Sequence record: PX880098.1
DNA length: 44,688 nt
Source: a phage
Direction: 5' to 3' (one strand)
The translations under genes were made by a program, and so were the position numbers. The notes under the pieces were generated by a model. That model worked only from the letters and a program-made list of their open reading frames with translations. It made no database searches and had not been told where the DNA came from. Positions 32,818 to 44,681 of the stretch are shown one piece after another. Within the stretch, counting starts at the first letter, position 1. Each line of letters starts with the position of its first letter.

Positions 32818-35100
32818 CTATTCCAAATCCTCCTCTGTCACCACCAGCATTTCATTAGGTTCGTATATTGTCTTCGGCCTTAGTCTATCCCCTATTCTTT
32901 CAGGTATACGATACGTTCGCGGCACTACTTCGCCGTTAGCGTCACAGCCTAGCATTAGTTCGCCATCTTTCAGCATTTTATCAAGATGGGTGTTAGTCAC
33001 AGAAAAGTCACCGGAACGGGCAACTATCTGCTGCTGAGTAAAACCGCGACCTGTGTCATCTGACTGTTGCAGGTCTTCCAGTGCCGAAAGTATTGACTCC
33101 TTTCTCCCTTCATCCCTGCCGCGTTTAACTTCTTCCTTTACTTTTTCTTTACCTTTATCGGATAGCCCTTCTTCCCGCTCCTTCTCCTCGTCAGTTTTGA
33201 ACGGCTCGAAGCCCCACGGCATCAATACAAGCGCTTTGTGCGGTTCAGGCAGGTCGAGGTTTACGATTGTGCCGTATTCCTCTGTGCTACCCCGGAACTC
33301 AACCGCGCGGTACTCTTTCGGCGGCGGGGCTTCGCGGAACTGTACGGACTCAAGCACCATGCCAACCGTTTTCTGCTGAGGCCCGTGCTTAAATTTTGAG
33401 TGGTATACGTTTATCTGACGGTCGGTAGCGCGTTCGATTGTCAGCTCTACGTCAACGCCCGCGTACAGCGCCCCACTGCCACGGGCTTTCTTTCCACCCT
33501 TCGGCGTATGGTGGACGACGCCTACCGCGGCTTTAGTCGCGTCGCGTACTTCTTTCAGGATGGCGATGACTTTACCCATGCCGATTGCCGTTGATGAACT
33601 GTTCTCGTCGAACTTATCAATCGTCAGGGCCAGGGTCTGGTTAAGGGTGTCGAACGCGACCATGCCAATTGGCTCGTCGCCAGCAGTTTCTCGCATCAGC
33701 TTAATCAGGCTTTTCAGTTTTCCGACTTCACCCATATCGATGACGTGTACATAATCTTTACCTTCCACGCCATATTTAGCCGCGAGCGCGTCAATACGTG
33801 TGCGGGTGGCGGCACCGCCCTCCCCGTCGATATAGAAATGGTGGCAACGCTGGGTGTCCGCCCCTGCAAACCTGTATCCGGCGGCGCTGAGGTACATCAT
33901 CCCCAGCGTATAAAACGATTTGTACGTACCGGATTCCCCAACAATATCCCAGATGCAATCTGACGGCATGTACCCTTCAACGACGAAATCAGCCTTTACC
34001 GGTTCCGGCAACTCGCCCTCCTCTGAGTCTTCGTCATCTTCCAGGTCGTCAAGGCTGCATGAAACGGACTCCCGCGCACCCCAACCTATAGCCTCTGCAA
34101 CCTCACTGAACGGAAGCCCGGTCGCGTCGCACGCGTATTTCCACACCTCTTTCGGTGACATGCCTTCGGTCGCCGTAATGTCGGTGTCGTGAATCATGGT
34201 TACGTTCGGCGCTTCGTACCCCTCGCGCGGGAAGCACAGCAGGAAGTCATCTGGCCTCGGCGTCGGGTCGCTGTATTTTTCTGCGTGTTCCGGCGTAGCT
34301 GGCATCTTAAGGCCGCGCGGCGTCATGATACCGCCGTATTCAAACGCCAGCGCCTCAAACGCATCGGTAAACGCTGTGCGCAGTTCTTCCGGTATCTGGT
34401 AATCCGACGCGCTGCTAACGTCGACGGCTGGGATGCCTTCCAGTAACTCGTCCGGGTCAATCAGGTCGTTGCGACGAGACCAGATAACCTGAGAGCCGAC
34501 CGGCGGCAGGTACATCGGCTGCGACAGAGTGAACCCGCTGCGGTCAGCACCCATGCCTTTAAAGAAGTGCTCCAGCAATCCGTGACGAACGCGGATGATG
34601 TCACCGCCTTCAACCGGACGACCCAGAGGCATGACTACGCGAAAGCGCGGTGACTCATCGGTATGTGATGCCGTGGTGTAGAGACACATAGCCCGACGGC
34701 TGCGCTTAACCAGACGCACTGCTTCCTGGTACTCTTCCGGTGTTGCACTGTCGAAGTCCAGATACGCCAGCGACGATTTGCTTACAGACGCGTCACAGCG
34801 ATAAAAGAAACCTTTGCGCGCTTGCTTAAAGTCACCGGTTTCCGGGTCTTTTACGGTGCTGTGCGTTGAGTCGCACGCGGCAGTGATATAGCCAGGCGCT
34901 GTCTTCGGGTTAACCCCGTCTCGAATGGCATCGAGCGGCTGTATTAACTCTTTCAGGTCGTCCAGTGTTGCCGTGTGCGTGGTTCTGACGTTTATATCCT
35001 TTTTCTCAGCCCGCGCGTTGCGACGTGACCACGAGTAGGATAAAATTACATCGGACATGTTGTATATTCCTTCAGCAAGTAATTTGGCCTCGGCGTTCAC
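32818..35100 (-). CDS. primase-helicase (AEP-type primase domain fused to P-loop NTPase)
   Basis: AEP-like DxD motif AYLDFDSATPEEY and SH-TDE motif in N-terminal half; Walker A GESGTYKS in C-terminal half; C-terminus TEEDLE. Confidence 0.6.
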   Translation of the reverse strand: MNAEAKLLAEGIYNMSDVILSYSWSRRNARAEKKDINVRTTHTATLDDLKELIQPLDAIRDGVNPKTAPGYITAACDSTHSTVKDPETGDFKQARKGFFYRCDASVSKSSLAYLDFDSATPEEYQEAVRLVKRSRRAMCLYTTASHTDESPRFRVVMPLGRPVEGGDIIRVRHGLLEHFFKGMGADRSGFTLSQPMYLPPVGSQVIWSRRNDLIDPDELLEGIPAVDVSSASDYQIPEELRTAFTDAFEALAFEYGGIMTPRGLKMPATPEHAEKYSDPTPRPDDFLLCFPREGYEAPNVTMIHDTDITATEGMSPKEVWKYACDATGLPFSEVAEAIGWGARESVSCSLDDLEDDEDSEEGELPEPVKADFVVEGYMPSDCIWDIVGESGTYKSFYTLGMMYLSAAGYRFAGADTQRCHHFYIDGEGGAATRTRIDALAAKYGVEGKDYVHVIDMGEVGKLKSLIKLMRETAGDEPIGMVAFDTLNQTLALTIDKFDENSSSTAIGMGKVIAILKEVRDATKAAVGVVHHTPKGGKKARGSGALYAGVDVELTIERATDRQINVYHSKFKHGPQQKTVGMVLESVQFREAPPPKEYRAVEFRGSTEEYGTIVNLDLPEPHKALVLMPWGFEPFKTDEEKEREEGLSDKGKEKVKEEVKRGRDEGRKESILSALEDLQQSDDTGRGFTQQQIVARSGDFSVTNTHLDKMLKDGELMLGCDANGEVVPRTYRIPERIGDRLRPKTIYEPNEMLVVTEEDLE

Positions 35101-35117
35101 CGCGTCGGGGCTTTCTT

Positions 35118-35998: not shown

Positions 35999-36026
35999 GG
36001 GCAGGCTTAAGGCCTGCCCTTTAGTT
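35999..36026 (+). terminator. intrinsic terminator in divergent control region
   Basis: GGGCAGGC-TTAAG-GCCTGCCC followed by TTTAGTT. Confidence 0.6.
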
Positions 36027-37784: not shown

Positions 37785-37807
37785 GTTACTATTTTGCTTT
37801 GTGTCTT

Positions 37808-37837
37808 ACGCTGCTACACAGCAGCGTATCATTTTTC
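37808..37837 (+). terminator. rho-independent terminator
   Basis: ACGCTGCT-ACAC-AGCAGCGT followed by ATCATTTTTC. Confidence 0.65.
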
Positions 37838-39677: not shown

Positions 39678-39967
39678 GCCTTGCAACTGACATCCTGAAA
39701 CGGAGCGGCCTTGCGCCGCTGTCGCCGAGAGCGAACACACGAATATACAAGCGCCGCCGTAATGCGCTGTACCCTGAGATTCAGGCCAGACGCAAAGCAG
39801 TCCGCGCCTGCGGATTCCAGAACGGGAAGGCTGTGAATCTCGGTGAGTTTAAAACAAAGGAACGTGCGGCTATCGCTAATCGGTTATTTAATTACTGGAA
39901 ATCGCTGGGTTATGAAGATATTCCGACGAAACCACAGAGACGACAATACATCTGGCGTCATAAATAA
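39674..39967 (+). CDS. hypothetical basic protein (97 aa)
   Basis: ATGA-coupled ORF; last gene before the lysis cassette. Confidence 0.5.
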   Translation: MSLATDILKRSGLAPLSPRANTRIYKRRRNALYPEIQARRKAVRACGFQNGKAVNLGEFKTKERAAIANRLFNYWKSLGYEDIPTKPQRRQYIWRHK

Positions 39968-39997
39968 ACCGTTATTAAGATAATTCCTAACCGTGCT

Positions 39998-40037
39998 ATC
40001 CTCCAGTTACTGCATACTTAATACGCACCTGGAGGAT
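39998..40037 (+). promoter_or_regulatory. hairpin able to sequester the holin Shine-Dalgarno
   Basis: ATCCTCCAG (39998-40006) pairs with CTGGAGGAT (40029-40037), which includes the GGAGGA SD of the TTG-initiated holin gene. Confidence 0.45.
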
Positions 40038-40042
40038 TCATC

Positions 40043-40351
40043 TTGGATAAATTTACTGAAACAGTGACTGGGTGGCTTCTGGCAGCCGCACTAGCTGGTG
40101 GGGTAATCGGACTACGACAACATAAGTCTGTTATTTCTGGCCCCATCGACGGATTCTGCTTTATCGCAACCGGCTTCACTTGCGCTGTATTCGGCGCGCC
40201 TCTTGCCGCTCAATGGTTCGGTATTACCGGCGAGCGCGAGATAGCTGGCCTCGGATTCATCATCGCTATTCTCTGGATGCCCATCTATTCCCGTCTCTCC
40301 GGTATCGTCTCTGGAGAATACATCGCTCGTCGAGGAGGCACAGATGAATGA
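40043..40351 (+). CDS. holin (putative, multi-TM)
   Basis: 102-aa protein with several hydrophobic helices; TTG start 6 nt after GGAGGA; immediately upstream of endolysin. Confidence 0.55.
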   Translation: MDKFTETVTGWLLAAALAGGVIGLRQHKSVISGPIDGFCFIATGFTCAVFGAPLAAQWFGITGEREIAGLGFIIAILWMPIYSRLSGIVSGEYIARRGGTDE

Positions 40352-40616
40352 GTTATTCTGGTTCGGTGGTATGCTGGCAATCGGGGGCACATCGCTGTTT
40401 AATGTGTATCATCCCAGCGTTGACGACGGGCTATTTGGTCGGGTGCTCTATATCCTGACCGCTATCGTCTGCGCCGCCGGATGTATCCACCTGTTACAGG
40501 GCAGCATGTCGCCGACGCTGCCTGAGACGTTAATCACATTAGTTGCGCTGCGCCAGATTCGTCAGGCGTGGCTGTCATACGGAGGGTATAAGCGTGTCTC
40601 GAAATATTTCAGATAA
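40344..40616 (+). CDS. second small membrane protein of lysis cassette (holin or antiholin-like)
   Basis: 90 aa, two predicted TM helices; overlaps both holin and endolysin genes. Confidence 0.45.
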   Translation: MNELFWFGGMLAIGGTSLFNVYHPSVDDGLFGRVLYILTAIVCAAGCIHLLQGSMSPTLPETLITLVALRQIRQAWLSYGGYKRVSKYFR

Positions 40617-41082
40617 TGGATTGCAGTTCAAGAAAGCGTGGGAAAAGTTTCGCGGAACTGCATACAAAGCAACGCCGAACGAGAAATACTGGACTATAGG
40701 CTGGGGCCATACCGGGCCTGATGTGTACGAAGGGCAGAAGATTACAGAAGGCCAGGGGTTGCTGTTACTGAACCGCGATATGCAGTGGGCTGTGAAAGCA
40801 GTCGATGACGTCGCACACCCCTCCCTGACCCAGGCCCAGTTTGATGCTGTTGTTGACCTGGTGTTCAACGCAGGGACTGGCGTGATCGCGGCTACTACTG
40901 GCACGGGTAAGGCCCTGCGCTCCGGTGATGTTGCGACGCTGCGGGCTAAGCTGGCGCTGTTCATCAATCAGAACGGCAAACCGTTACTCGGCCTGCGTCG
41001 CCGTACCGCCGGTCGTCTGGCGCTGTTCGACGGTAAACCGTGGCAGGAGGCTGAGGCTATTGGGCGCGCGGTGAAAGGTTGA
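40594..41082 (+). CDS. endolysin, T4 lysozyme-like (GH24)
   Basis: KATPNEKYWTIGWGHT matches the T4-lysozyme-type YxxIGxGH catalytic region; GTG start 8 nt after GGAGG; listed ORF has longer N-terminal extension. Confidence 0.7.
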   Translation: MSRNISDNGLQFKKAWEKFRGTAYKATPNEKYWTIGWGHTGPDVYEGQKITEGQGLLLLNRDMQWAVKAVDDVAHPSLTQAQFDAVVDLVFNAGTGVIAATTGTGKALRSGDVATLRAKLALFINQNGKPLLGLRRRTAGRLALFDGKPWQEAEAIGRAVKG

Positions 41083-41147
41083 CACCTAAGACTAATCCGA
41101 CGATACTTAAATCACCTCCTGTTCCATCCCTCTACTCTCCAGTTTTA

Positions 41148-41178: not shown

Positions 41179-41261
41179 TCTATTTTCTGCAATGACTAGT
41201 GGACTATTATTCTCGACCCTATTATACTTACTCCATCGACAGCGAGAACGGAGTAGAGAAT

Positions 41262-43825: not shown

Positions 43826-43849
43826 TAGACGGGCTAGATAATTGATGTT

Positions 43850-43883
43850 AGTATCAACCCATCCATTGAAGTGGGTTGATACT
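43850..43883 (+). repeat. perfect 12-bp inverted repeat abutting the HNH start codon
   Basis: AGTATCAACCCA (43850-43861) and TGGGTTGATACT (43872-43883) with 10-nt loop; ATG at 43884. Confidence 0.6.
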
Positions 43884-44681
43884 ATGAATTACGAAAAGAT
43901 ATACGAAAGCCTGATAGCTCGTTGTAGGTCGTTACCCCGCCAGGGCTACACCGAAAGACACCACATACTGCCGAGGTCCTTAGGCGGTGATGACTCCCCT
44001 GAGAATCTTATTGATCTATCCGCAAGAGAACATTTCTTCGCGCATCTCCTTCTGGCAAAAATCCACGGTGGTAACATGTGGGCCGCTCTGGCATACATGT
44101 CAAGAGGCGGCACTAAGTCAAGCAAACTGCATAAATGCACATCCCGTCAGTATGAGTTTATAAAGCGTAAAGACGCTGAATGGCGTAGCTTGAGGTACCG
44201 CGGGGATAAGAACCCGTTCTACGGGAAAACACATTCACCACAAGCCCTGGTGAAAATGCGCAAACCTAGGGTCAATAAAGAGAGACTTTTTGGGCGGACG
44301 GTGCCAGGTGTCGGGGCTATCATATCGTTTGTGCAGACGTATAAACCCCGCGCGGTAGAAATAGATACTACGGTTAGAGACCGAATTGATAGTTGGTTCA
44401 CGGTAGACGAGGAACTGCGGCAGCTTAATGTATTCCTCGCCCGTAGCCAGGGGCAGAAAGCGCTCAATCGCGACCACCGCGGCGAAAAGAACCCAAACTA
44501 CGGCAATGGGAAAGCCATATCAGGCGAAAAGAACCCGATGTTTGGAAAGAAACACAGCGAAAGCACCAGGGCCAAAATTGCGGAGAAAATGAAACGCACT
44601 ATGGTGTGCCCGCACTGCGGCAAAGAATCTAACATAGCAAACGCACATAGGTGGCACTTTGACAACTGCAAACACAAATGA
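43884..44681 (+). CDS. HNH homing endonuclease with NUMOD-like DNA-binding repeats
   Basis: HNH core YTERHHILPRSLGGDDSPENL...EHFFAH; repeated NPFYGKTHS and KNPNYG/KNPMFGKKHSESTRAKI NUMOD3-like motifs; C-terminal CPHCG...C zinc finger. Confidence 0.7.
   Translation: MNYEKIYESLIARCRSLPRQGYTERHHILPRSLGGDDSPENLIDLSAREHFFAHLLLAKIHGGNMWAALAYMSRGGTKSSKLHKCTSRQYEFIKRKDAEWRSLRYRGDKNPFYGKTHSPQALVKMRKPRVNKERLFGRTVPGVGAIISFVQTYKPRAVEIDTTVRDRIDSWFTVDEELRQLNVFLARSQGQKALNRDHRGEKNPNYGNGKAISGEKNPMFGKKHSESTRAKIAEKMKRTMVCPHCGKESNIANAHRWHFDNCKHK

Follow-up and report, generated by a model that had tools for sequence, protein, structure and literature searches.

In the phage analysed here, the gene at the head of the lysis cassette, encoding a holin, starts at a TTG codon, and its Shine–Dalgarno (SD) sequence lies within the 3' arm of a perfect 9-bp inverted repeat. 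What the aligned sequences show directly is the helix with its SD, the TTG, the conservation of all three, and the RNA-type and compensatory substitutions found in relatives; that the helix would lower translation, that lysis timing would be set in this way, and that there would be any effect on transcription in this phage, we infer. The best-supported reading is that the weak TTG and the occluded SD probably act together to lower the translation of the holin.

The window, i.e. the whole stretch of DNA that was analysed (44,688 bases, PX880098.1), amounts to an essentially complete genome of an E. coli siphophage of Kagunavirus type (Guernseyvirinae), with more than 100 GenBank relatives at 85–90% identity. 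The hairpin site is located at the head of the lysis cassette, and the relevant features are the following.

39966..40042, + strand: leader module travelling with the holin; homology to relatives with other upstream content resumes at 39966–39973
39994..40002, + strand: TGcTATCCT, a candidate extended -10-like motif (TGnTATnnT) seen in the sequence, overlapping the base of the 5' arm
39998..40006, + strand: hairpin 5' arm, ATCCTCCAG, an anti-SD sequence, paired in the minimum free energy (MFE) and centroid folds
40007..40028, + strand: hairpin loop, 22 nt, A/U-rich, with an in-frame TAA at 40019–40021 inside it
40029..40037, + strand: hairpin 3' arm, CTGGAGGAT, holding the Shine–Dalgarno GGAGGA (40031–40036)
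40043..40045, + strand: TTG start of holin gene 1, the first start after the in-frame stop, with a 6-nt spacer, TTCATC, from GGAGGA
40043..40351, + strand: holin gene 1, 102 aa, with three hydrophobic segments discernible by eye; phrog_2359 'holin' (PHROGs, E = 1.8e-29)
40344..40616, + strand: second holin-like gene, 90 aa, ATG start, own GAGGAGG SD; phrog_2508 'holin' (E = 5e-33)
40594..41082, + strand: endolysin, GTG start; PF00959 Phage_lysozyme (Pfam, E = 5.6e-27)

Holin gene 1 matched no Pfam family, the lambda-holin family included, and is labelled holin or class II holin-like in the annotation of relatives, in which the endolysin is also annotated as the same 489-nt CDS. The genes of the cassette overlap, holin gene 1 and the second holin-like gene by 8 nt, and the latter and the endolysin by 23 nt. 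Their start codons differ (TTG at 40043, ATG at 40344 and GTG at 40594), and each of them has a GGAGG-type SD. In the relative L063 (positions 1501–2313) the gene-1-type holin is the sole holin-like gene, with the endolysin directly after it and the homologue of the second holin-like gene absent. This arrangement suggests that gene 1 may be sufficient as a holin, and therefore more than a mere antiholin.

Two GenBank records deserve a mention with respect to this locus. In fBC-Eco01 (OM272052.1; L043, 827–870, corresponding to about 40126–40169 of the window), the depositors' annotation puts, within the holin CDS, a 'Rho-dependent terminator predicted by ARNold'. In Escherichia phage vB_EcoS_fTaEco03 (MT711528.1; L001, 1465–2900), a 299-bp tandem duplication, corresponding to 39858–40156 of the window, runs from the last part of the upstream gene through the entire hairpin leader to codon 38 of the holin. 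A truncated N-terminal piece of the holin, 43 aa long and annotated 'putative antiholin/holin', thereby precedes a second, complete copy of hairpin and holin; the duplication could be either real or an assembly artefact.

An earlier note on this DNA had placed the holin start at the TTG and had pointed out that the frame holds no ATG near the N-terminus, and both claims are borne out. Given the in-frame TAA at 40019–40021, no start is possible in this frame before TTG 40043; the next candidate, a GTG at codon 8 (40064), lacks an SD, and an in-frame ATG is not reached until codon 79. A strong SD lies 6 nt upstream of the TTG, and the stretch TTG-GAT-AAA aligns with the start of the Dhillonvirus holin, ATG-GAT-AAG. 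In addition, the 19 variable sites past the TTG are distributed as 5, 2 and 12 over codon positions 1, 2 and 3, which is a coding pattern. The TTG start itself is already annotated in GenBank, where relatives carry the same start and a 309-nt holin CDS, and the Schulenburg record has a ribosome-binding site (RBS) annotated at the equivalent place. On these comparisons, UUG can be regarded as established, short of proteomics, as the true initiation codon of the holin.

The within-genus comparison comprised 49 ungapped K-type leaders, and a metagenome census added 36 contigs; the relatives examined number about 85. The TTG is kept in 49/49 K-type loci, in L063 and in 36/36 metagenome contigs, these contigs having been found with a pattern that allowed any base at the first position of the start codon. 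Since a single substitution would give ATG, this invariance suggests that weak initiation of the holin may be under selection.

As regards the hairpin, ATCCTCCAG is the exact reverse complement of CTGGAGGAT, with 9 perfect Watson–Crick pairs and a 22-nt loop. The coordinates previously given for the stem are all correct, 39998–40006 pairing 9/9 with 40029–40037, and the proposal that this stem can cover the SD stands, GGAGGA being contained in the 3' arm. Specifically, what is expected of an SD-sequestering hairpin, namely a paired SD and a fold more stable than composition predicts, was found for the local RNA, of which the hairpin is both the MFE and the centroid structure (-14.7 kcal/mol, z = -2.8, with 2/200 shuffles folding equally well). 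In an 81-nt context the fold reaches -18.4 kcal/mol (z = -2.3), and in a 108-nt context the energy of the whole segment is unremarkable (z = -1.0). The unpaired probability of the holin SD, about 0.00, is lower than that of any other among the 63 crude gene calls that have an SD (median 0.44); the values closest to it are 0.002, 0.003 and 0.025, i.e. three other calls below 0.03. By the cost of opening positions -14 to +3, the holin start region ranks third of 74 gene calls.

Perfect 9-bp stems with a loop of up to 30 nt gave 10 positional hits (6 hairpins) over the whole genome, compared with 5.8 ± 3.0 in dinucleotide shuffles. As stems of this length are not rare in the genome, the mere existence of the hairpin is no evidence, and the case rests on its position and conservation. 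A search of Rfam returned no family, the only match being a sub-threshold one on the opposite strand to STnc500 (13.7 bits, compared with a gathering score of 44), and the hairpin appears to be previously undescribed.

The 3' arm is invariant across all K-type loci, and the 5' arm is identical in 45/49 of them and in 36/36 metagenome contigs. Among the 49 K-type loci, 1 of the 18 arm positions is variable, compared with 8 of the 22 loop positions (Fisher p = 0.027), the conservation of the 5' arm taken alone not being significantly higher than that of its surroundings (p = 0.25). The arm variants that do occur, A40005G (L041 and L066–68) and C40004T together with A40005G (L063), convert in every case a Watson–Crick pair to G·U, and none of the roughly 85 relatives carries an arm-breaking variant. 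Substitutions of this kind keep the helix in the + strand RNA while breaking both the DNA palindrome and the helix in the - strand RNA, and they therefore point to selection on the + strand RNA. They also speak for the presence of both arms on at least some of the functional + strand RNA.

Covariation within the genus is not significant, because the helix hardly varies. Over nine distinct sequences, 90.6% of the cells are paired, compared with 19–46% in slid registers; shuffles do about as well, 36/500 of them reaching the covariation score, and on the other measures the alignment is no better than shuffles. Some relatives carry a longer stem. In the LSPA1-like lineage (L031/L066), two changes in the 3' strand (GCACC to GTAAC) pair with GTTAC and convert part of the loop into stem, giving a 14-bp helix in a fold of -22.4 kcal/mol. 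Likewise, L027 has gained one new G-C pair in the stem, and L063 also carries stem-extending changes.

The upstream genes form a tightly packed block which ends 75 nt before the holin, and the leader of about 70 nt, with its hairpin, stays beside the holin across four or more upstream contexts. In the LSPA1-like phages (L031 and L066) the upstream gene is a different one and homology restarts at about 39966, and the protein encoded upstream in Kagunavirus is unrelated to its Dhillonvirus counterpart. In many relatives (RP180-like phages such as L025, 1003–1430; also H51, H61, H62, H64 and others in GenBank), a gene of about 428 bp, labelled 'peptidase HslV family / ATP-dependent protease', is found exactly between the upstream stop and the leader, with an insertion point at about 39966–39973 of the window, and it looks like a moron-type insertion that has spared the leader. 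As for the 97-aa protein encoded upstream in the window, no Pfam hit was obtained even at E <= 10, and no PDB relative. The idea that it might be a regulator was abandoned, on account of these missing matches, of the lack of homology in Dhillonvirus and of a poor single-sequence AlphaFold model (pLDDT 60.6); an impression of an AP2 domain in the same protein proved unsupported and was dropped.

Outside the K-type loci, the arrangement was compared with that of two sister lineages. L063, whose holin is 68% identical, has an unrelated and shorter loop; helix and SD are retained, and so are the TTG and its 6-nt spacer. The Dhillonvirus set (HK578, i.e. L045, KarlBarth, SP1 and 14 IMG/VR contigs) encodes a holin about 50% identical to that of the window, which starts with ATG at the homologous codon. 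Directly 5' of this ATG stands AGTCCCAGTGAG-CTAAAA-CTTACTGGGACT-TTTTTT, in which the sole SD-like element, GGGA, is located in the 3' arm, and the leader segment folds at -29.5 kcal/mol (z = -4.3). The ATG of the Dhillonviruses (HK578, L045 1103–1140; L046, L047, L049–L062) thus comes after a 12-bp terminator-like hairpin and a T6–7 run, without a separate SD.

A covariance model made from K-type sequences only gave the Dhillonvirus element as its top hit at the homologous site in 6/6 loci. The match is full length, with the helix paired and E of about 0.001–0.04 with the filters off; filters-off searching was needed, as default filters missed Dhillonvirus. The two genera have in common the flanks CGTG-N-TAT upstream and (A/T)TG-GAT-AA downstream. 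When the shared CAG/CTG is used as anchor, four base pairs are seen to have changed in both partners from one genus to the other (T-A/C-G, C-G/T-A, C-G/G-C and T-A/A-T). The cross-genus register is not unique, the covariance-model and hand-anchored alignments being off by one column with several double changes in both, and a MAFFT alignment of Kagunavirus with Dhillonvirus sets the helix one column out of register. Pair-preserving change across lineages consists of the new loop of L063 and about four double changes in Dhillonvirus, as seen in three lineages only and in a register that is not unique. The layout is the same in all three, with the SD in the 3' arm and the start 6–7 nt further on, and the spacing between the arms is 22, about 12–14, 7 or 6 nt, depending on the lineage.

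Searches for more distant relatives were sparse in their yield. An exhaustive HMMER search for distant holin relatives gave 14 representatives only; tblastn with P0019 returned Dhillonviruses only, the Sodalis phage SO-1 being itself a Dhillonvirus; and no IMG/VR loci were obtained via P0019 and P0020. The Ounavirinae homologue Wc4-1 (L048) is without a comparable hairpin over its RBS. As a consequence, covariation is informed by three lineages only.

All together, the G·U substitutions, the variable arm spacing and the compensatory changes argue for a helix kept as a structure of the + strand RNA, and against a DNA operator or a - strand RNA. We consider it exceedingly improbable that the repeat is a palindrome acting at the DNA level, for instance as the operator of a dimeric protein of phage or host origin, or that it is a functionless chance repeat. 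Perfect 9-bp inverted repeats do arise by chance about six times in such a genome, and the within-genus covariation statistics are weak, as this explanation would have it. However, an arm spacing which varies as described above is unfit for a fixed protein-binding geometry, the substitutions that give G·U break the DNA symmetry, and a helix that has diverged in sequence persists in another genus, with no arm-breaking variant in about 85 relatives. On the grounds of spacing and of G·U-forming substitutions, the operator reading was rejected.

The hairpins were also submitted to an intrinsic-terminator scan. The homologous hairpin of Dhillonvirus (L045) passes it with 12 pairs, a loop of 6 and a T-run, and that of L063 passes it with 13 pairs, a loop of 7 and TTATTTT; in both, the U-run of the terminator doubles as the spacer between SD and start. 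The window hairpin fails the scan, having a 22-nt loop and a poor U-tract (tail UUCAUCUU / TTCATCTT), and the LSPA1-like hairpin (L066), with its 14-bp stem, is rejected as well. Since its homologues pass, the window element belongs to a family of hairpins that probably acts on transcription too, and it would probably also limit, or insulate against, transcription arriving from upstream.

Pushed further, the same data could be taken to mean that the hairpin is mainly a terminator or attenuator of the operon upstream, and that it overlaps the holin SD only incidentally, as a consequence of tight packing. Two homologues that satisfy the scan, and a packed upstream block that ends 75 nt before the holin, agree with this proposal, which we nevertheless judge improbable. 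The window and LSPA1-like hairpins fail the scan, and the leader accompanies the holin, rather than the upstream gene, through changing contexts. Moreover, an SD in the 3' arm with a start at 6–7 nt, found in three lineages, is hard to explain by packing alone, and a terminator at this position would starve the lysis genes of transcripts unless it were bypassed.

A different role is suggested by the -10-like motif at the base of the 5' arm. It is a serious possibility, if an unlikely one, that the hairpin is an insulator with an embedded promoter: TGcTATCCT (39994–40002) would drive transcription from about 40009, giving transcripts that lack the 5' arm and are freely translated. Only read-through transcripts would then hold both arms, and these would be silenced (or, in Dhillonvirus and L063, terminated). 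According to this possibility, the hairpin would guard against premature holin synthesis, following the logic of IS10 and IS200, and would perform no steady-state tuning.

The pattern TGnTATnnT is kept in all three lineages, reading TG[C/G]TATCCT in L063 and the K-type loci and TGATATAGT (5/6 plus TG) in the Dhillonviruses, while the neighbouring bases diverge, and the Dhillonvirus motif lies mostly outside the helix. In Dhillonvirus, in addition, the RBS is buried in a terminator stem of roughly -20 kcal/mol, so that read-through mRNA would be nearly untranslatable; another source of open mRNA would therefore be needed, and an embedded promoter would explain it. The module boundary at 39966–39973 is about where such a promoter would begin, and IS200 and Tn10 provide precedents. 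On the other hand, a consensus sigma-70 promoter scan at the hairpin called none, the -35 being weak and the -10 matching at only 4/6, and the genome shows no recurrence of the motif: CGTGNTATCCT, allowing up to 2 mismatches, was hit 26 times, compared with 34 expected, and ATCCTCC 3 times, compared with 3.4 expected. A recurring promoter or operator motif was rejected on this basis. Furthermore, the likeness to a -10 is partly automatic, coming from the anti-SD sequence; CGUG can pair instead, as an outer helix with the spacer or the start region; and, if another -10 candidate spotted by eye, GATAAT at 39979–39984, were the one used, the mRNA would begin with the hairpin.

Quite doubtful, in our opinion, is the combined idea of a hairpin with three jobs, a 'gate' that would be terminator, anti-SD and promoter overlap at once, in a portable module with this holin family. 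If true, lysis timing in virulent siphophages (Kagunavirus and Dhillonvirus) would be set by promoter choice at an element of about 70 nt. Early-gene transcripts would be terminated or silenced and the arm-less transcripts of the promoter would be translatable, which amounts to an IS10-like fold-back applied to lysis.

The reading that we favour, a holin translation lowered by the weak TTG and the occluded SD, would operate as follows. In + strand transcripts entering the lysis cassette from upstream, the inverted repeat would fold as a hairpin whose 3' arm is the SD of holin gene 1, and a 30S subunit would bind only with the helix open. The helix and the intrinsically weak TTG would hold translation of the first holin low compared with that of the downstream holin-like gene and the endolysin, which would present exposed SDs and have ATG and GTG starts. 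As holin accumulation sets the time of lysis in the lambda paradigm, lower initiation should delay lysis, and by this analogy the hairpin and the TTG may serve as the lysis 'timer' that the earlier note had considered plausible. The element may descend from, or partly still act as, a terminator-type hairpin that curbs upstream transcription, which would provide the lysis genes with insulation at two levels.

This favoured reading has its weak points. SD function by itself constrains the 3' arm, and the overlapping -10-like motif could account for the conservation of the 5' arm. In addition, a holin mRNA starting at about 40009 would leave the 5' arm off the main transcript, and some holin mRNAs might be without the 5' arm altogether.

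An SD held in a stable helix and a weak start codon are standard ways to lower initiation, and occlusion of the RBS by mRNA structure is reportedly the subject of the work of de Smit and van Duin on the MS2 coat gene. The window hairpin joins this general class of RBS-occluding hairpins, from which it differs in nothing essential; particular to it are its place ahead of a lysis gene, its deep conservation and its homology to terminator-like hairpins. As RBS occlusion and the translational control of holins are both familiar principles, it extends the class and overturns nothing. With intrinsic terminators it shares a stem followed by a U-containing tail, but it differs from them in its 22-nt loop and poor U-tract.

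In lambda S, an upstream stem-loop controls access to an SD, and lysis time tracks the rate of holin translation (bioRxiv 10.1101/2025.05.14.654169). As in the lambda 'sdi', the stem-loop of the window lies just 5' of the holin and includes the SD of the first start. Lambda, however, has two AUG starts (Met1 and Met3), and its stem-loop partitions initiation between antiholin and holin, whereas the window holin has a single TTG and no Met-Lys-Met, and hence no dual start. With only one holin start, the window phage does not belong to the lambda dual-start/sdi system, and a balance of antiholin and holin, if any, would need to arise from the two separate genes.

A second comparison is offered by mobile elements. 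IS10 is protected by a fold-back mechanism, its transcription start site being located between the arms. The left end of IS200 combines a terminator against impinging transcription with a stem-loop that sequesters a near-consensus SD (PMC4513863), and IS10/Tn10 is protected from external promoters, according to Davis, Simons and Kleckner 1985 as cited in PMC13181058. The likeness consists of a gene that is harmful when over-made and is shielded by termination and by a cis hairpin hiding the SD. In IS200, however, the two functions are carried by two separate inverted repeats, whereas here a single hairpin would, putatively, combine them, most clearly in Dhillonvirus and L063. IS10, for its part, guards a transposase and has its start site between the arms, whereas in the window a phage lysis gene is concerned and the candidate TGnTATnnT lies over the 5' arm.

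The level of holin determines the moment of lysis, and hence burst size and fitness, and members of both genera, Kagunavirus and Dhillonvirus, have been widely isolated as potential therapeutic phages against E. coli. How their lysis genes are regulated is little-trodden ground, our literature search having found no transcript mapping or lysis-gene study for either genus. A change of TTG to ATG, and mutations that open the stem, would be handles for tuning lysis time in these phages. The comparative picture also suggests a compact way of insulating a lethal gene from upstream transcription, which might be of use as a synthetic-biology part.

Other elements of the genome were recorded along the way. 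The longest perfect hairpin of the genome is a 13-bp inverted repeat at 43849–43884 (TAGTATCAACCCA ... TGGGTTGATACTA, 10-nt spacer), placed at the very start of the ORF 43842–44681, just upstream of the terminase region; it is possibly a packaging or regulatory site. At 1248–1271, right after an ORF ending at 1227, a perfect 9-bp hairpin with A-runs and T-runs on either side (AAAAGCCGC ... GCGGCTTTT) has the form of a bidirectional intrinsic terminator. Promoter-like sequences are found at 41079–41107 (TTGACA-17-GATACT, 10/12 matches) and 41200–41228 (TGGACT-17-TATACT), in or at the edge of the 116-nt gap that opens directly after the stop codon of the endolysin and precedes a further group of small genes. 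Finally, terminator-like hairpins are in excess between 32000 and 38500, with 17 compared to 6.7 ± 2.6 in shuffles, and strong + strand examples lie around the divergent early region, at 35086–35112, 35999–36019 and 37807–37828.
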